Assembly: GCA_045589755.1 (NCBI GenBank)
Contig: JAZNPR010000010.1
Location: forward strand, 11,439 to 75,438
Length of the DNA stretch: 64,000 nucleotides
DNA from: Paludibacteraceae bacterium
GTDB lineage: Bacteria > Bacteroidota > Bacteroidia > Bacteroidales > Paludibacteraceae
Reading direction: 5' to 3'
Shown: piece after piece, positions 437-42,920 of the stretch
How positions within the stretch are numbered: the stretch's first letter is position 1
How the letters are laid out: every line of letters starts with the position of its first letter
Notes under the pieces: model-generated
What the model saw: the letters and a program-made list of their open reading frames with translations, nothing else
Told to the model about the DNA's origin: nothing
Database searches by the model: none
Made by a program: the position numbers and the translations under genes

Positions 437-742
437 TTACGCAGTGTAAGCAGCCCACTCCAGTGCCCAGATGTACGAGCGGAAATTGTCGTACTTTTTC
501 TGTGCTTTGAACGCAGCCACATCTTCAGGTGCAGCGGTCTTGACGCGTGCAGCGGTGGAAGCTGCTACGGCTTTGAACTTAGCCTGATGTGCCAACTCCT
601 GCTCGGAGTAAGGCGAAGTGCGTTGGTTGCATCGCTTTTGGGTGTAGAGGGTGTTGCCTCGTTTCGCAAAAGAGATGTCAGAGTGACCGCAGATTTTACC
701 GGACATAGACTTGATTAAGTCCATAGGGGTGTACTTTGCCAT
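437..742 (-). CDS. small basic protein, paralog family copy 2 (function unknown)
   Basis: 101-aa ATG ORF. Clear paralog of 57..389 (same conserved blocks), co-directional and 47 bp upstream of it. Confidence 0.6.
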   Translation of the reverse strand: MAKYTPMDLIKSMSGKICGHSDISFAKRGNTLYTQKRCNQRTSPYSEQELAHQAKFKAVAASTAARVKTAAPEDVAAFKAQKKYDNFRSYIWALEWAAYTA

Positions 743-6908: not shown

Positions 6909-8702
6909 ATGACCTACCAATGGAACATACGGCATTTGACTGCGGTGGAACAGGAGTCGCAACAGCAGTTGGAGCGCGAACTGAACATCAGTTCCGCTGC
7001 CGCGCGTATGTTGGTCGTACGAGGCATACAGACCGCCGATGAGGCACGCGCTTTTGTGCGCCCATCGCTGGACAATCTACATGACCCCTTCCTCATGAAG
7101 GACATGGACAAAGCCGTAGAGCGTCTGCACCAAGCCATCACACGAGGCGAGAAAATCCTCATCTACGGCGACTACGATGTGGACGGCACCACCGCCGTAG
7201 CGCTCATGTACCGTTTTTTGGAGGGGATAATGGATAATGGACCAATCGCCAATAGCCCGCAGGGCGTCCAATACCCAATAGGCGGAACGCCGTCCAATAT
7301 CGACTACTATATTCCCGACCGCTACACCGAAGGCTATGGCGTATCGCAACAGGGAATTGACTACGCAGCTGCACAAGGTTGCTCACTCATCATTACACTC
7401 GACTGCGGTATTAAGGCGGTAGAGAAAATCGCATATGCCAACAGCAAAGGCATTGATGTCATCGTTTGTGACCACCACACCCCTGGCGATGAACTCCCCG
7501 CAGCCGTAGCGGTGCTCAACATGAAGCGCCATGACTGCCCATACCCATACAAAGACCTTTCGGGTTGCGGTGTCGGTTTCAAACTGGCGCAAGCATATAC
7601 GCAACGCTACCTCGCCTCTCGCCTTTCGCCTAATAGCCTCATCGCCTTGTTGCCTCTCACTCAACTGCTAGCGATGTCTATCGCTTCGGACATTGTACCT
7701 ATCACAGGCGAAAACCGAATCTTGGCGCACTTCGGTATTCAGCAACTCAACACCCAACCTTTCACGGGTTTATCGGCAATCATGCAAGTGGCAGGTATTG
7801 AGGCAAAGAAGATAACAATCAATGAATTAGTATATAAGATTGGGCCGCGCATCAACGCTTGTGGACGCATGAAATCTGGTCGTGCAGCCGTAGAACTATT
7901 GCTCACCGACGACCCTGTTTTTGCACGCCAACAAGCCGAAGAAGTCAATCAGCACAACGATGACCGCCGCGACTGCGATACAGAAACTACCAAAGAGGCA
8001 TTGCTACAATTGCAAGACGACCCTGCCTTCGCTAACCGCCGCTCGACCGTAGTCTATGCCCCTCATTGGCACAAAGGAGTTGTGGGTATTGTGGCATCAC
8101 GTTTGACCGAAACCTACTACCGTCCTACTATCGTTCTCACCGCAGGCGAGGATGGTATCATCTCAGGCTCGGCTCGTTCGGTAGGAGGATTTGATATCTA
8201 TGCTGCTATTGATTCGTGCCATGACTTGCTCACTAACTTTGGCGGACATAAATACGCTGCGGGACTCAGTATGCACATCAATGACCTGCCTGAGTTTAAG
8301 CAGCGTTTTGAGGCATACGTAGTTGCCCATATACAGCCCAATCAGTTGCAACCCACATTGGATATTGAGGCAGAATTGCAATTGGGTGATATTACCAAGC
8401 AGTTCTACAACGTGTTGCGCCATTTGGAGCCCTTCGGCCCAGGCAATCCGCGTCCGCTGTTTGTGTCGCGCCGACTGATCAATCACCGCGACACGCGTGC
8501 TGTAGGCAAAGAGCGTGAGCATTTGCGCTTGGACGTTACCGACCGCATGAATGCCATCACTGGCATCGCCTTCGGGCGTGCCGACATGGCAGAGTATATC
8601 CAAAACGGCAACGCCGTGGACATCTGCTACGAACTTAACGAAAATACATTCAACCACTATACCACCATCCAAATGATGGTACAAGATATTAAGCCATCCT
8701 AA
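6909..8702 (+). CDS. recJ: single-stranded-DNA-specific exonuclease RecJ
   Basis: DHH-family motifs IYGDYDVDGTT, DRYTEGYG, LIITLDCG, VCDHH, and the DHHA1 motif GGHKYAAG. The start is set at MTYQWNIRHL, just after the promoter box. Confidence 0.9.
   Translation: MTYQWNIRHLTAVEQESQQQLERELNISSAAARMLVVRGIQTADEARAFVRPSLDNLHDPFLMKDMDKAVERLHQAITRGEKILIYGDYDVDGTTAVALMYRFLEGIMDNGPIANSPQGVQYPIGGTPSNIDYYIPDRYTEGYGVSQQGIDYAAAQGCSLIITLDCGIKAVEKIAYANSKGIDVIVCDHHTPGDELPAAVAVLNMKRHDCPYPYKDLSGCGVGFKLAQAYTQRYLASRLSPNSLIALLPLTQLLAMSIASDIVPITGENRILAHFGIQQLNTQPFTGLSAIMQVAGIEAKKITINELVYKIGPRINACGRMKSGRAAVELLLTDDPVFARQQAEEVNQHNDDRRDCDTETTKEALLQLQDDPAFANRRSTVVYAPHWHKGVVGIVASRLTETYYRPTIVLTAGEDGIISGSARSVGGFDIYAAIDSCHDLLTNFGGHKYAAGLSMHINDLPEFKQRFEAYVVAHIQPNQLQPTLDIEAELQLGDITKQFYNVLRHLEPFGPGNPRPLFVSRRLINHRDTRAVGKEREHLRLDVTDRMNAITGIAFGRADMAEYIQNGNAVDICYELNENTFNHYTTIQMMVQDIKPS
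7225..7300 (+). repeat. interspersed 'CCAATA/GGCGGAACGCC' repeat element inserted in frame in recJ
   Basis: ggataatggataatggaccaatcgccaatagcccgcagggcgtccaatacccaataggcggaacgccgtccaatat. A 52-bp core recurs almost identically at 42869-42920. It encodes GIMDNGPIANSPQGVQYPIGGTPSN, about 22 aa that E. coli RecJ lacks between ...SLG and NIDY. Confidence 0.8.
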
Positions 8703-8750: not shown

Positions 8751-8852
8751 GGATAATGGACGCTCGCATGCGAGCTAATGGATAATGGTCCAATCCCCAA
8801 TAGGCGGAACGCCGTCCATTAGCGAAGCGTCCATTAGCAAAGCGTCCAATAA
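8751..8852 (+). repeat. intergenic copy of the same repeat family
   Basis: ggataatggacgctcgcatgcgagctaatggataatggtccaatccccaataggcggaacgccgtccattagcgaagcgtccattagcaaagcgtccaata. Contains the palindrome gctcgcatgcgagc and the hairpin ggcg-gaa-cgcc. Confidence 0.8.
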
Positions 8853-15896: not shown

Positions 15897-16130
15897 ATGT
15901 ATAAAAACATTTTTTTTATCATTAGTTTTTGAAAGTTTGGCACAGTTTTTGTGAAAATATTTTTGAACATGTGCAACGCAAAGCGCAAGTAATTGTGTTA
16001 TTTAATAAATAGTGTTTTTCATAATGGAAAAAGAGTTCGATGTGATATCGCGCTCTTTTTTTCTTGCCCATACCCCATACCCATTACCCCATATCCAACA
16101 AAAAAATTTGCACACATGCAAAATTTTTAC

Positions 16131-16138
16131 TACCTTTG
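16131..16138 (+). promoter_or_regulatory. -7 box TACCTTTG for priA
   Basis: Exact match 9 nt upstream of the ATG at 16147. Confidence 0.55.
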
Positions 16139-16146
16139 CAGCAGAA

Positions 16147-18450
16147 ATGTCCAACGCCATATTGATTGATATTATTTTGCCGCTGGCAATAGCGGATGTG
16201 TACACGTATCGGGTATCGGGTATCGGAGAGCGGATATCGGATACCTCGTTGATGGGGTGTCGCGTGTTGGTGCCACTGGGCAAGAAGACGATTACGGGTG
16301 TCGTTTATCGCCTTCACCAGGGCGACTTGCCCGCTTCAGTCAAGGTGCGAGATGTGGTGGATATTATTGACACTCAACCCGTTGTTACGGCTTATCAGTT
16401 GCGCCTATGGCAATGGATGGCGGAGTATTATATGTGTACTTTAGGCGAAGTGATGGCTGCGGCATTGCCTGCGGGAATCATCGACGACAACTATACCGCC
16501 CGCACGATTCAGTATATCCATTTGCATCCTTCGATAGCAGATCCTCGCCAGCAAGAACTAACGCTTGATAGTTTGCGCCGCGCTAAGTCGCAAGAGCAAC
16601 TCTTGCGTTGTTTCCTGCGTATGAATAATAACGGTGTAGAGCGCCGTGTACTCTTAGAGGCGAGTGGGGTAGGCAGTGCGGTGTTGCGTACAATGATTGA
16701 CAAGGGAATATTTTTAGAGGAGGAGCGACCCGTCTCACGATTGCGACAATATACGGGTCAAATGCAGCCGCTACATGCCCTTGATAATCAGCAGACAAAG
16801 GCTGTTGAATCAATACGAGCAAGCTGGCAAACAAAGAACGTAACCCTCTTGCATGGTGTGACGTCCAGCGGAAAGACGGAGGTGTATATTCATCTCATAG
16901 ACGAGCTGCTCAAGCAAGGCAAACAGGTGCTATATCTCGTGCCAGAGATAGCCCTGACTACCCAACTCACCGAACGCTTGCAAGCTGTTTTTGGCAATCA
17001 GGTGTTGGTTTATCACTCGCGCTTCAGTAGCGACGAACGCACAGAGATATATTCCAGCCTATTACCAATATCCAATAGCGAAGCGTCCAATATCCAATAT
17101 CCAAATCTCATCCTCGGTGCCCGCTCCGCGATATTTCTTCCGTTCACCAACTTAGGACTGGTCATTGTGGATGAGGAGCACGAACCCAGTTACAAGCAGC
17201 AGGACCCTGCTCCGCGTTACCATGCACGTTCATCGGCGATAATGATGGCGCAGTGGCATGGCGCTAAGGTACTTTTGGGCACAGCCACACCTTCTGTAGA
17301 ATCTTATCATAATGCTCTGTCTGGGAAATATGGTTTGGTTGAGATGACGGAGCGTTTTCGTGGATTGCAGTTGCCCAAAATTACGATGGTGGACTTGCAG
17401 CGCCAATACCACCGCAAAGAGATGTATGGTCATTTTGCCGACCCTGTGGTATTTCGTATCCGCGAGGAGATTGCCAGAGGCAAACAAGTTATTTTGTTCC
17501 AGAATCGCAGGGGGTATGCACCTTTCTTGCAGTGTCCTAATTGTGGCGAGGTGCCCAAGTGCTCGAACTGCGATGTGAGTATGACCTACCACAAGAGCAA
17601 CAATACCCTCATCTGCCACTCTTGCGGTCATACCCATTCAATATCCAATAGCCCAGAGGGCGTCCATTATCCCATCTCCAATACCCGAATTTGCCCCAAG
17701 TGTGGCTCTGAATGGCGATTGCAGGGTTTTGGTACCGAGCGTTTAGAGGAAGAAATACAGCATCTTTTCCCGCATGCGCGCGTGGAGCGTATGGACTTAG
17801 ATACTACGCGGCGCAAGGATGCTTATCAGCAGATTATTGATCGTTTCGCGTGCCACGAAGTGGACATACTCATTGGCACACAAATGGTTACGAAGGGACT
17901 GCATTTTGATGATGTCTCGTTGGTGGTTGTTTTGCAGGCTGATACGTTGGTTAATCAGCCCGACTATCGGAGTGCCGAGCATGCTTTTCAGATGCTGGAG
18001 CAGGTGTCGGGGCGTGCAGGGCGCAGTGGCAAACAGGGCGAGGTGATGATTCAGACTTTCGACCCTAAGAATCCCTTGTATGCATTGCTGTGTTCGCACG
18101 ATTATGCGGGACTATACCATAGGGAGATTAGCGAGCGACAGATGTTCTGTTTTCCCCCATTTCATCGGCTGATTGTGCTCAGTTTACGCCATCGTGATGT
18201 ACAGCGTTTGGAGAGGAGCAGTGTGGTGCTGATGCAGGCATTGAGAGGGGTGTTTGGCGGGCGTGTGTCTGGTGTGATTACGCCATTGGTTTCACGTCGT
18301 CAGAATCAGTATATCCGCCAGTTGCGTTTGCGTGTGGAGCAAGGCGCAAATGTGCAGCGTGCCAAGCAGTTATTGCGCGAACAAATCCGCTTGCTTTTGC
18401 AACAGACGGATTGCAAAGGTACGATTGTGTCCATTGATGTCGATCCTTAA
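16147..18450 (+). CDS. priA: primosomal replication-restart helicase PriA
   Basis: Walker A GVTSSGKTEVY, DEEH box, Cys-rich zinc region (CPNCG..CSNCD..CHSCG..CPKCGS), helicase motif VI QVSGRAGR. The start is set at MSNAILIDIILPL, after the promoter box. Confidence 0.9.
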   Translation: MSNAILIDIILPLAIADVYTYRVSGIGERISDTSLMGCRVLVPLGKKTITGVVYRLHQGDLPASVKVRDVVDIIDTQPVVTAYQLRLWQWMAEYYMCTLGEVMAAALPAGIIDDNYTARTIQYIHLHPSIADPRQQELTLDSLRRAKSQEQLLRCFLRMNNNGVERRVLLEASGVGSAVLRTMIDKGIFLEEERPVSRLRQYTGQMQPLHALDNQQTKAVESIRASWQTKNVTLLHGVTSSGKTEVYIHLIDELLKQGKQVLYLVPEIALTTQLTERLQAVFGNQVLVYHSRFSSDERTEIYSSLLPISNSEASNIQYPNLILGARSAIFLPFTNLGLVIVDEEHEPSYKQQDPAPRYHARSSAIMMAQWHGAKVLLGTATPSVESYHNALSGKYGLVEMTERFRGLQLPKITMVDLQRQYHRKEMYGHFADPVVFRIREEIARGKQVILFQNRRGYAPFLQCPNCGEVPKCSNCDVSMTYHKSNNTLICHSCGHTHSISNSPEGVHYPISNTRICPKCGSEWRLQGFGTERLEEEIQHLFPHARVERMDLDTTRRKDAYQQIIDRFACHEVDILIGTQMVTKGLHFDDVSLVVVLQADTLVNQPDYRSAEHAFQMLEQVSGRAGRSGKQGEVMIQTFDPKNPLYALLCSHDYAGLYHREISERQMFCFPPFHRLIVLSLRHRDVQRLERSSVVLMQALRGVFGGRVSGVITPLVSRRQNQYIRQLRLRVEQGANVQRAKQLLREQIRLLLQQTDCKGTIVSIDVDP
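16206..16245 (+). repeat. heptamer word repeat (GTATCGG)x3 plus degenerate units inside priA
   Basis: gtatcgg gtatcgg gtatcgg agagcgg atatcgg atacc encodes VSGIGERISDT. Confidence 0.85.
17061..17106 (+). repeat. CCAATA-family repeat in frame in priA
   Basis: attaccaatatccaatagcgaagcgtccaatatccaatatccaaat encodes LPISNSEASNIQYPN. Confidence 0.8.
17633..17687 (+). repeat. CCAATA-family repeat in frame in the priA zinc-binding region
   Basis: cccattcaatatccaatagcccagagggcgtccattatcccatctccaatacccg encodes HSISNSPEGVHYPISNTR between CHSCG and CPKCG. E. coli PriA has about 9 residues between these cysteine pairs; this gene has 22. Confidence 0.8.
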
Positions 18451-18717
18451 TGGATAGTCGTGGCAGTTATTTATATTTTTTTTGTTGGCTTTCAACTTCT
18501 CGACTAAATAATCGAAGAACCCCCTCATTTTCCCCGCTCGCACCGCACAATAACCGCACTATTACCGCACAATAACCGCACAATTCCTGGCGGTCATGGC
18601 CCCCCCCATTTGCAGAAAATTAACACTGTGATTACTGGTTTAGTGCTCGGCGTTAATTCGCCGAGCAAAAAAACACAAGAAAATGCGATTTTTCTTGCAT
18701 TTATGCAAATTTTGTAG

Positions 18718-41719: not shown

Positions 41720-42820
41720 ATGGCAACACTTACTCCTATTTTTTCTGCTGCGGAGATTCGTACCGCCCAAGAGTTTATCAATCAGTCGAATAACATAGTT
41801 ATTCTCACGCACATGTCGCCCGATGGCGATGCCATGGGTTCGTCCTTGGCGATGCGCCATTTCTTGGAGGCGCAGGGCAAGCATGTGTCGGTGATTGTGC
41901 CGAATGCTTTTCCCGATTTTTTGGCTTGGTTGCCCAAGGCCGATGAGGATATTATTTACGAGTCGCGCCGTGCGGAGGCGGACGCGCTGTTGGAGCAGGC
42001 GGATTTGGTTATTTGCACCGATTTCAACGAGCCCAAGCGCATTGGTTCGTTGGGCGATAAGTTGCTCACGCTCACTTGCCGCAAGATGATGATTGACCAC
42101 CATCTCCACCCATCCGATTTTCCCGATTTGACATTGTCTTATCCCTCTTCCCCCTCCACCTGCGAACTCGTCTATCGCCTAATAACATGCCTCCAATACC
42201 CGATATCCGATACCCAATACCCGATATCCGATACCCGCTCCCCGATATCCCAAGAAATAGCCACCTGCATCTATACGGGCATGATGACCGATACGGGCAA
42301 TTTCTCCTTTAATTCCAATTATCCAGAGATGTACCAGATTGTCGGTGAATTGGTGTCGTTTGGGGTGAATAAGGACGAGATCTACAACCGTGTTTTCAAT
42401 GCTTATTCGGCGGATCGTATGCGTCTGATGGGCTATTGTTTGTATCAGAAGATGCGCATTTTCCCAGAGTGTCATACGGCGCTCATTTATCTGAGCCGCA
42501 AGGAGTTGTATCGTTTCAATTTCCAGTCAGGTGATGCAGAGGGTATTGTGAACTTGCCGTTGCAGATTAAGGATATTCACTATTCGTGTTTCATGCGCGA
42601 GGACAAGGTCAATCCTACCGAAGTGGCGTTGGCGGGCGGAAGCAAAACGAAGATTAAAATCTCGCTTCGCAGTCAGGGTAATCGTCCTGTGAATGTGTTT
42701 GCTAAGGATATTTTCGGCGGTGGCGGTCATGCCAATGCTTCGGGTGGCGAGTATTATGGTCCATTGCCCGAAGCGGTGCAACGCTTCTTGGACAACTATC
42801 AAGACTACTTTGTCTTGTAA
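41720..42820 (+). CDS. nrnA: DHH/DHHA1 phosphoesterase, NrnA-like oligoribonuclease/pAp phosphatase
   Basis: Motifs HMSPDGDAMGS, DFN, MIDHH, TGMMTDTGNF, GGGHANASG. Confidence 0.75.
   Translation: MATLTPIFSAAEIRTAQEFINQSNNIVILTHMSPDGDAMGSSLAMRHFLEAQGKHVSVIVPNAFPDFLAWLPKADEDIIYESRRAEADALLEQADLVICTDFNEPKRIGSLGDKLLTLTCRKMMIDHHLHPSDFPDLTLSYPSSPSTCELVYRLITCLQYPISDTQYPISDTRSPISQEIATCIYTGMMTDTGNFSFNSNYPEMYQIVGELVSFGVNKDEIYNRVFNAYSADRMRLMGYCLYQKMRIFPECHTALIYLSRKELYRFNFQSGDAEGIVNLPLQIKDIHYSCFMREDKVNPTEVALAGGSKTKIKISLRSQGNRPVNVFAKDIFGGGGHANASGGEYYGPLPEAVQRFLDNYQDYFVL
42191..42251 (+). repeat. CCGATA-type word repeat inserted in frame in nrnA
   Basis: ctccaatacccgatatccgatacccaatacccgatatccgatacccgctccccgatatccc encodes LQYPISDTQYPISDTRSPIS just before the conserved (E)IATCIYTG block. 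Confidence 0.85.
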
Positions 42821-42920
42821 CCCTTACCCCTTACCCATTATCCCTTACCCATTATCCATTACCCATTACCCAATAGCCCGCAGGGCGTCCAATACCCCTT
42901 AGGCGGAACGCCGTCCAATA
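42821..42920 (+). repeat. composite intergenic repeat (CCCTTACCC/CCATTA words + 52-bp CCAATA core) overlapping the 3' end of the exosortase-like gene
   Basis: cccttaccccttacccattatcccttacccattatccattacccattacccaatagcccgcagggcgtccaataccccttaggcggaacgccgtccaatatg. The core matches the recJ insertion at 50 of 52 positions. Confidence 0.85.

Follow-up and report, generated by a model that had tools for sequence, protein, structure and literature searches.

The replication-restart helicase gene priA in a 64,000-nucleotide (nt) stretch of DNA from a Paludibacteraceae bacterium (hereafter the window, contig C10:11439-75438 of G000, a 2.19-Mb, 44% GC short-read metagenome-assembled genome [MAG] in 86 contigs) carries three in-frame segments that appear to be translated copies of a lineage-specific, modular family of small repeats. 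With a probability of about 0.7 for this explanation as a whole, we favor a scenario in which such tiny repeats would be made by slippage and short-patch replacement and filtered by selection on the peptides they encode. The segments had been proposed in an initial annotation made from the DNA letters, and their sequences, peptides, and coordinates proved exactly as claimed (Table 1). The closest public relatives of the genome are all titled “MAG: Paludibacteraceae bacterium” and come from ruminant and other herbivore hindguts.

Table 1. Features of the priA region (window coordinates) and, in the last row, related loci with other repeats in the same PriA loops (PriA residues)
Feature	Position	Strand	Description
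priA, replication-restart helicase PriA	16147..18450	+	767 aa, intact ORF; TIGR00595, structure match
Site 1	16206..16245	-	Antisense CCGATAC-type heptamers, (GTATCGG)x3 plus degenerate units; DNA GTATCGGGTATCGGGTATCGGAGAGCGGATATCGGATACC; peptide VSGIGERISDT
Site 2	17061..17106	+	CCAATAT/CCAATAG heptamers flanking one hairpin module; DNA ATTACCAATATCCAATAGCGAAGCGTCCAATATCCAATATCCAAAT; peptide LPISNSEASNIQYPN
Hairpin module of site 2	17072..17088	+	CCAATA-GCGAAGC-GTCC (GC stem, GAA loop); read as NSEAS
Third CxxC pair, CHSC	17614..17625	+	C490/C493; ortholog alignment
Site 3	17633..17687	+	Heptamers plus one hairpin module between third and fourth CxxC pairs; DNA CCCATTCAATATCCAATAGCCCAGAGGGCGTCCATTATCCCATCTCCAATACCCG; peptide HSISNSPEGVHYPISNTR
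Hairpin module of site 3	17645..17665	+	CCAATA-GCCC-AGA-GGGC-GTCC; 4-bp stem; read as NSPEGV
Fourth CxxC pair, CPKC	17692..17703	+	C516/C519; ortholog alignment
Intergenic array, CCCATAC type	16067..16097	+	About 50 nt upstream of priA start; same family
Loci with other repeat families in PriA loops	aa 26-32, 163, 230, 308-316, 499-512		L005, L008, L020, L024, L026, L042, L066, L072, L073

The host gene was assigned from its sequence and a predicted structure. The product of the open reading frame (ORF) scores 534.5 bits against TIGR00595 (primosomal protein N'), whose curated cut-off is 230.35, its best sequence match in the Protein Data Bank (PDB) is Escherichia coli PriA 8fak, and the superfamily 2 (SF2) helicase motifs GVTSSGKT (Walker A GxGKT) and DEEH are invariant among PriA orthologs. 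For the comparisons we used 30 protein homologs (72–95% identity) and examined the three sites in 80 orthologous GTDB-representative loci, 63 of which were protein-aligned. An AlphaFold2 (AF2) model obtained with a 63-sequence alignment of diverse orthologs has a mean predicted local distance difference test score (pLDDT) of 85 and a predicted template modeling score (pTM) of 0.83, and superposes on E. coli PriA 8fak_H with a TM score of 0.87; sequence and model together identify the ORF as PriA with a predicted six-domain PriA fold.

At all three sites, comparison of filled with unfilled alleles shows that an old loop was overwritten, without target-site duplication. Site 1 lies in a loop of the N-terminal 3'-DNA-binding domain, where 15 amino acids (aa) stand in place of an 11-aa loop of RVPSNMPTPLA type (net +4 aa); the segment is missing from the related loci L002, L003, and L081. 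Site 2 lies in helicase lobe 1, between ERxEIY and ILGARS, with a net length change of 0 relative to a sister allele and of +6 to +8 aa relative to distant relatives. Site 3 turned the ancestral nine-residue spacing (X9) between the last two CxxC pairs into X22 (net +13 aa). The word “insertion,” as the initial annotation used it, is therefore imprecise, since old loops were replaced. SNSPEGVHYPISNTR is an example of a predicted peptide that spans the inserts.

The segments are linked to the rest of the genome by shared DNA words. The site 1 21-mer GTATCGGGTATCGGGTATCGG is also found in an intergenic array on contig C11, the site 2 21-mer CCAATAGCGAAGCGTCCAATA occurs at four loci, and the hairpin module of site 2 is present in six genes, in one frame every time. 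The longest exact matches of sites 1, 2, and 3 elsewhere in the genome are 21, 21, and 17 nt, respectively, and because they do not exceed this length, the segments are better described as mosaics of modules than as copies of a longer master.

Two building blocks make up the family: CCNATAN heptamers (CCAATAT, CCAATAG, CCAATAC, CCGATAC, CCCATAT, and similar variants) and modules of the form CCNATA-[stem-loop-stem]-GTCC. The modules are 15–25 nt long and hold a GC-rich mini-hairpin between constant ATA and GTCC edges, with a variable but complementary 2–6 bp stem and usually a 3–4-nt loop, mostly GAA, GCA, AAA, or AGA. More than 15 different stems occur (GGCG, GCCC, GCCCAC, GCCGC, GCTCGC, GCCTC, and others), and 34 minimal CC.ATA...GTCC.AT spacers can pair perfectly at their ends over 4 bp or more, compared with an expectation of 0.7 after shuffling. 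The shortest module, GCGAAGC, is a heptamer known as an unusually stable DNA mini-hairpin, to which nearest-neighbor folding gives no fold. A constant 8-nt junction, GTCCNATA, lies between hairpins. Another 21-mer, CCNATAGGCGGAACGCCGTCC, occurs nine times in this genome, once in a single congener, and not at all in a further 199 family genomes, and this near confinement to one genome argues that the module variants are very young.

Under a conservative definition, the genome contains 75 confident elements, against 0–2 in each of four third-order Markov simulations. Tandem Repeats Finder (TRF) reports 365 arrays of period 7, the commonest period (151 of them in genes), followed by 244 of period 9 and 185 of period 11 (44 of the latter in genes). 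With genes defined by a simple codon-usage caller (1,688 genes covering 88% of the genome, priA recovered), 48 of the 75 elements are genic, in 42 genes, 26 are intergenic, and one lies at a gene edge; the 12% of DNA that is non-coding thus holds 36% of copies, a roughly 3-fold excess (p = 5e-8). All 20 host genes checked are conserved genes with Pfam domains, including MnmA, Mfd, MutS, LigA, PurD, a Mur ligase, and an NtrC-type regulator, and by our own reading of domain envelopes about 14 of 24 copies fall between or outside these domains.

Orientation and frame provide evidence for filtering. Tabulation over the genome, which the initial annotation had proposed, revealed a strongly non-random orientation, with 42 genic copies in sense and six in antisense (p = 1e-7; antisense about 7 times rarer). 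Copies between co-directional genes show no bias (5:8; Fisher p = 7.6e-4 vs the genic ratio), so the bias arises inside coding sequence, and strand-coupled insertion, considered as its source, was rejected on the same grounds. The initial annotation had all intragenic copies in recJ, priA, and nrnA read in a single element frame. Those in recJ and nrnA are indeed sense and in frame; priA site 1, however, is one of the six antisense copies, and the first units of the sense copies are distributed 12/21/9 over the three frames. QYPISN-type peptides emerge whatever the entry frame, because successive 7-nt units run through all three frames within 21 nt.

The TAG stop codon, suggested earlier as the filter, cannot explain the sense bias, because stop codons would favor the opposite orientation: 206 of 225 antisense frames are open compared with 132 of 225 sense frames, yet antisense copies are rare. 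The telling frame data come from the hairpin modules, each of which has two open sense frames, with selective usage among them. GGCG-GAA modules are read as PIGGTPS in 7/7 cases, GC-GAA as [ND]SEAS in 6/6, and GCCC-GCA as NSPQGV in 3/3; GCCC-NNN-GGGC modules in genes are mostly in the NSPEGV/NSPQGV frame, with one GCCC-ATA copy on C15 in the other (PIAHRAS). The frames avoided would give NRRNAV, PIAKR, and PIARRAS. The Lys plus Arg fraction is 0.059 for used frames, compared with 0.242 for open frames that go unused (lower in 24 of 31 pairs; Wilcoxon p = 1.8e-4), used frames consist to 62% of G/P/S/T/N/Q, and antisense frames reach a hydrophobic and aromatic share of 39% vs 12%. These data fit peptide composition, not stop codons, as what sets the orientation and frame of genic copies. 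Of the earlier proposal that selection acts on intragenic copies, filtering as such stands (42:6 vs 5:8), while its stop-based form does not, and peptide composition fits in its place.

In the AF2 model, the inserts are predicted to behave as disordered loops, most clearly at site 3: its core (aa 501-512) is the only stretch of PriA with pLDDT below 50, and sites 1 and 2 coincide with local minima without secondary structure (72 in block 21-30 and 66 in block 311-320). Alignment agrees with the initial annotation that site 3 separates the CHSCG and CPKCG pairs by 22 residues, against 9 in E. coli. The four CxxC pairs (C463/466, C472/475, C490/493, and C516/519) retain all eight Cys in the 63 orthologs, whose pattern, C-X2-C-X5-C-X2-C-X14-C-X2-C-X9-C-X2-C, is that of E. 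coli; X5 never varies, X14 is conserved in 62 of 63 orthologs and X9 in 51 of 63, and X9 is the sole expandable spacing of the module, reaching 14–30. As judged from the alignment, the ligands and other spacings of the two predicted zinc sites are untouched by the repeats. Compared with the Cys-rich region (CRR) of E. coli and Klebsiella pneumoniae PriA (PDB 8fak, 4nl4; PMC10175261), the window PriA has an identical zinc-ligand pattern and differs in the C6–C7 spacing (22 vs 9), where the 13 extra residues form a stretch of repeat origin that is predicted to be disordered and whose length differs among strains.

The E. coli CRR carries the DNA-unwinding beta-hairpin, pivots by about 85 degrees upon fork binding, and docks PriB via Asp438 and residues 481-483, directly after the last CxxC (PMC10175261). 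The site 3 insert lies in the loop directly before the position of this E. coli PriB-docking surface. To our knowledge, PriB is essentially limited to Proteobacteria, and its absence may explain why this face of the CRR varies freely here.

Indels in the 63 PriA orthologs recur at about seven sites (aa 26-32, 62, 76, 163, 230, 308-316, and 499-512), three of which are occupied by the segments of the window. X9 expansion is mainly limited to the subclade containing the window, and most of the lengths added relative to the ancestral loop are integer multiples of 7 aa. With (CCAATCG)n arrays, the CHxCG–CPxC loop grows in 7-aa steps from its ancestral 8 aa to 15, 22, or 29 aa, and hairpin-bearing alleles have 21 or 28 aa there; most relatives have short loops. 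Elsewhere, the same loops hold unrelated families, among them GGCGAGA heptamers (EAKGERRE) and AGAACCA heptamers, the same hairpin modules reversed (…DGQRPIG…, …YGTAAPIG…), and the elements APQKSTDFSGTPL (hairpin CCCCAA..TTCGGGG), EKEVLPFRGGFRRG, and SPYKGEGEKLPSS...PSLCREGR. Because unrelated families fill the same positions, PriA loops appear to collect, time and again, the small repeats present in a given lineage. The initial annotation had named a conserved peptide on divergent DNA as the pattern that would refute it. Nowhere in the ortholog alignment, which it had named as a check, did we find this pattern, which speaks in its favor: relatives have identical repeat DNA, another family, or a short ancestral loop.

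Strain polymorphism, which the initial annotation had suggested testing for, is present, as read from members of protein clusters at ≥ 90% identity and from their contigs. In the window's own cluster, 12 sequences have 21 aa at site 3 and four have 28 aa; in the next cluster the site measures 21 aa (three sequences), 28 aa (11), or 35 aa (one), and a cluster with a different, non-CCAATA repeat at this site is monomorphic. All 60 cluster members examined are in frame, with lengths differing by whole 21-nt (7-residue) steps, and the extra 21 nt of L001 at site 3 are a tandem copy of three heptamers. Site 2 is dimorphic in a third cluster, where HELFRHPDAGLRESNHGN, probably the ancestral loop, to judge from its normal divergence among relatives, alternates with the repeat-built SSLLPISNSEASNIQYPN of equal length. 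Two alleles that are ∼98.5% identical differ at site 2 by a single 63-nt block, which we read from sequence as short-patch allelic replacement.

Repeat DNA at site 2 is also more uniform than its surroundings. In L002 it is identical at 46 of 46 positions, whereas the 200 flanking nt are 81% identical (0.81^46 = 6e-5), and in L003 and L034 it is identical at 45–46 of 46 positions with flanks about 89% identical; since identity exceeds that of the flanks, the repeat appears to be kept uniform at the DNA level. The priA of L081 is a two-parent hybrid with an L003-like 5' half and a window-like 3' half. Identity per 100 nt along 16000-18450 swings from 56% to 100% against L001, L002, L003, and L081. 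On such comparisons priA appears to be a recombination mosaic among co-occurring species.

We propose that slippage during replication would yield changes in copy number, of which only three-unit (21-nt) steps would survive in genes. The second process proposed is short-patch templated replacement, by gene conversion or by template switching, for which heptamer microhomology would serve as the primer; it would operate among loci as well as among the alleles of co-occurring strains and keep repeat DNA more uniform than its flanks. No transposase would be needed for copying and turnover. Copies in genes would survive only in surface loops and linkers, and only where orientation and frame encode peptides that are low in Lys/Arg and in hydrophobic residues and rich in Gly/Pro/Ser/Thr/Asn/Gln; such peptides would act as disordered loops. 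The mode of spread is the weakest part of this explanation, and several observations count against it. We found no donor–recipient pair for ectopic conversion, which leaves spread to be inferred, and the 63-nt block at site 2 takes in 12–15 nt of priA that lie upstream of the repeat and do not belong to it, which points to exchange between alleles and not to an ectopic one. With 89.6% of the genome recovered, an enzyme gene may lie in the missing part. The intergenic control for orientation is small (13 copies), the copies are related to one another, so that p-values for orientation and frame overstate independence, and a few N-terminal “genic” copies may precede the true start given the simple gene caller. 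Single hairpins are weak by nearest-neighbor energy: the site 3 module as DNA has −3.4 kcal/mol and z = −1.9, and sites 1 and 3 give z of about −1.9 vs shuffles. Because folding of single segments barely beats shuffles, the case for hairpins rests on stem complementarity across copies. Finally, the insert-bearing PriA is known here solely from its sequence and a predicted model.

A real, though much less probable, alternative is that a dedicated enzyme recognizes the ATA...GTCC edges and the hairpin and moves the modules as miniature mobile elements, as in repetitive extragenic palindromic (REP) sequences with their REP-associated tyrosine transposase (RAYT) or in the single-strand transposition of IS200/IS605-like elements, with selection merely pruning landings. 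The junction that stays constant between hairpins with varying yet complementary stems, the several identical module copies restricted to this species, and the REP-like 9:1 excess of intergenic copies at convergent over divergent gene ends would all suit such an enzyme. Yet the Y1/RAYT transposase domain (PF01797) had no match in G000 (89.6% complete), whereas control genomes matched, and no candidate enzyme lies beside the longest intergenic arrays (C11 and C43), whose neighbors are ordinary genes (asnS-like, TonB-dependent receptors). Loops were replaced without target-site duplication or a clean empty site, there is no strand bias outside genes, and the modules are far below any known transposed unit in size, with at most 21 nt common to any two loci. 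It is more improbable still that the segments are adaptive, lineage-specific PriA loops (for example, partner-binding surfaces in a lineage without PriB) whose likeness to repeats is secondary. The near invariance of the site 2 peptide SSLLPISNSEASNIQYPN over four ≥ 90% clusters speaks for this, as does the role of the E. coli CRR as a moving, partner-docking module (PMC10175261), but the same DNA words occur at 75 loci, intergenic ones included, and synonymous sites are frozen too (46/46 nt), which favors DNA-level copying over peptide selection. Sister strains, moreover, differ in their loops (21, 28, or 35 aa, or an unrelated sequence of equal length), most relatives manage with short loops, and AF2 shows the inserts without structure.

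We see little chance that priA is a contingency (phase-variable) gene in which slippage by one or two units switches PriA off and on. Although the unit is not a multiple of three and copy number at site 3 differs between close strains, 60 of 60 cluster members are in frame with whole 21-nt steps, the tracts are short and imperfect (2–3 units), and priA is a housekeeping gene, intact in 63 of 63 orthologs. An assembly or binning artifact, with short repeats mis-joined in the contig, can be given hardly any weight. The short-read origin of the 86-contig genome would make it conceivable; against it, the same alleles and inserts were assembled independently, cluster 1 comprising 39 members (ENA, Logan, and NCBI) on contigs of up to 634 kb, and L001, L002, L081, and L103 stem from different samples. 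The ORF is also uninterrupted, and assembly k-mers exceed the repeats in length.

Beyond translated repeats filtered by peptide selection, we would tentatively raise a broader possibility: the CCNATAN heptamers and ATA-[variable hairpin]-GTCC modules might together constitute an undescribed class of sub-25-nt, self-propagating, transposase-free DNA that spreads by microhomology-primed short-patch replacement, in which heptamer arrays would serve as landing pads and recombination hot spots and stems would co-evolve for pairing and for Gly/Pro/Ser/Thr coding in the frame used. If so, housekeeping proteins such as PriA would be continuously remodeled at a fixed set of loops, even within species.

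Several further copies and neighboring features were recorded. In the window, same-family copies lie in recJ (7242-7299, PIANSPQGVQYPIGGTPSN) and nrnA (42193-42250, QYPISDTQYPISDTR), and intergenic ones at 8813-8848 and 42820-42890. The array just upstream of priA is present in L001, and L003 and L081 have other repeats there; directly downstream of the priA stop, an array of 11-nt period, ACCGCACAATA x4, spans 18542-18585. An Rfam scan of the window returned two tRNAs only. Nine intergenic copies lie between convergent genes and one between divergent genes. Arrays fill nearly the whole stop-to-start or stop-to-stop spacer at C37:28194-28223, C38:5706-5758, C48:1424-1511, and C86:4265-4346; we considered whether such tightly flanked arrays might be repeat-broken genes and rejected this, as they just fill the spacers. 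A VirE/primase-like mobile-module gene (G000 C11:897-2243) contains two in-frame LGDEAKG(K/D) stretches built from GGCGA-type heptamers, from which it seems that mobile-element genes are invaded as well. Alongside Bacteroidales MAGs, five GenBank records encode a PriA 59–61% identical to that of the window: L040, L041, L046, L047, and L049, titled Mycobacteriaceae, Acidaminococcaceae, Azospirillum sp. CAG:239, Bacteroides uniformis, and Dialister sp. CAG:486; these bins are probably mislabeled.

In Rickettsia, in-frame “selfish” repeats are a well-known curiosity. The family described here is far smaller and modular, pervades housekeeping genes of an abundant uncultured herbivore-gut lineage, and shows enough activity for 7-residue length differences to exist among strains of one species in the zinc-binding module of an essential-type helicase. 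In the literature searched, we found no description of it for Bacteroidales or Paludibacteraceae. New elements are the map of PriA loops, the X9 loop of the zinc module, the within-species polymorphism in 7-aa steps, the short-patch exchange, and the demonstration that orientation and frame are set by peptide composition rather than by stop codons; these two filters, commonly lumped together, are told apart by the data. The loops offer a natural map of where PriA tolerates insertions. Such segments also inflate apparent protein divergence and cause alignment and annotation artifacts in MAG catalogs, and they could serve as strain markers.

Known systems resemble the family in part. Cyanobacteria are said to harbor short tandemly repeated repetitive (STRR) heptamers and small dispersed repeats (SDR, 21–27 nt), reportedly described by Elhai et al. 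in 2008, and we know of no account of frame-specific intragenic use of SDRs. The likeness, by description only, lies in dispersed units of ∼20 nt that are hairpin-associated, nested in heptamer arrays, and without an identified enzyme; the sequences and the phylum differ. SDRs are mentioned in PMC3116915. REP/REPIN sequences with RAYT (PMC3116915) share short GC-rich hairpins, a conserved flanking motif, and enrichment at gene 3' ends, but they are extragenic, with conserved stems and a co-occurring RAYT gene, whereas the present family has more than 15 stems, 64% genic copies, and no Y1 found in the genome. Nor does it show the terminal inverted repeats and the target-site duplication at a clean insertion that define miniature inverted-repeat transposable elements, loops having been replaced. 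Long simple sequence repeats (SSRs) with 5–11-nt units, heptamers being the most frequent, were surveyed by Mrazek et al. (2007), and TAACTGA heptamer repeats occur in Beggiatoaceae, cyanobacteria, and a few Bacteroidetes, according to the introduction of PMC4679880. Our arrays fall within this class in that period 7 dominates and the arrays are scattered, lineage-specific, obscure in origin, and in many cases fill the spacer from gene to gene. TAACTGA arrays, however, are mostly intergenic and carry stops in forward orientation, whereas 64% of our confident copies are genic and our arrays are interleaved with hairpin modules.

The closest parallel is with Rickettsia palindromic elements (RPEs), reportedly described by Ogata et al. 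in 2000. As summarized in PMC10969869, RPEs are palindrome-containing repeats located in frame in unrelated housekeeping genes. The repeats described here likewise occur in frame in many unrelated housekeeping genes, are translated as a surface peptide compatible with the fold, and encode no transposase. RPEs, however, are palindromes of ∼100–150 bp with a conserved encoded peptide in Rickettsia, whereas here the priA segments measure 40–55 nt with stems of 2–6 bp and consist of 7-nt repeats and 15–25-nt modules in gut Bacteroidales; unlike in RPEs, stems vary freely, copy number would change by slippage, and at most 21 nt are common between loci. By analogy, the family can be regarded as a miniature, modular variant of Rickettsia-type in-frame selfish DNA.

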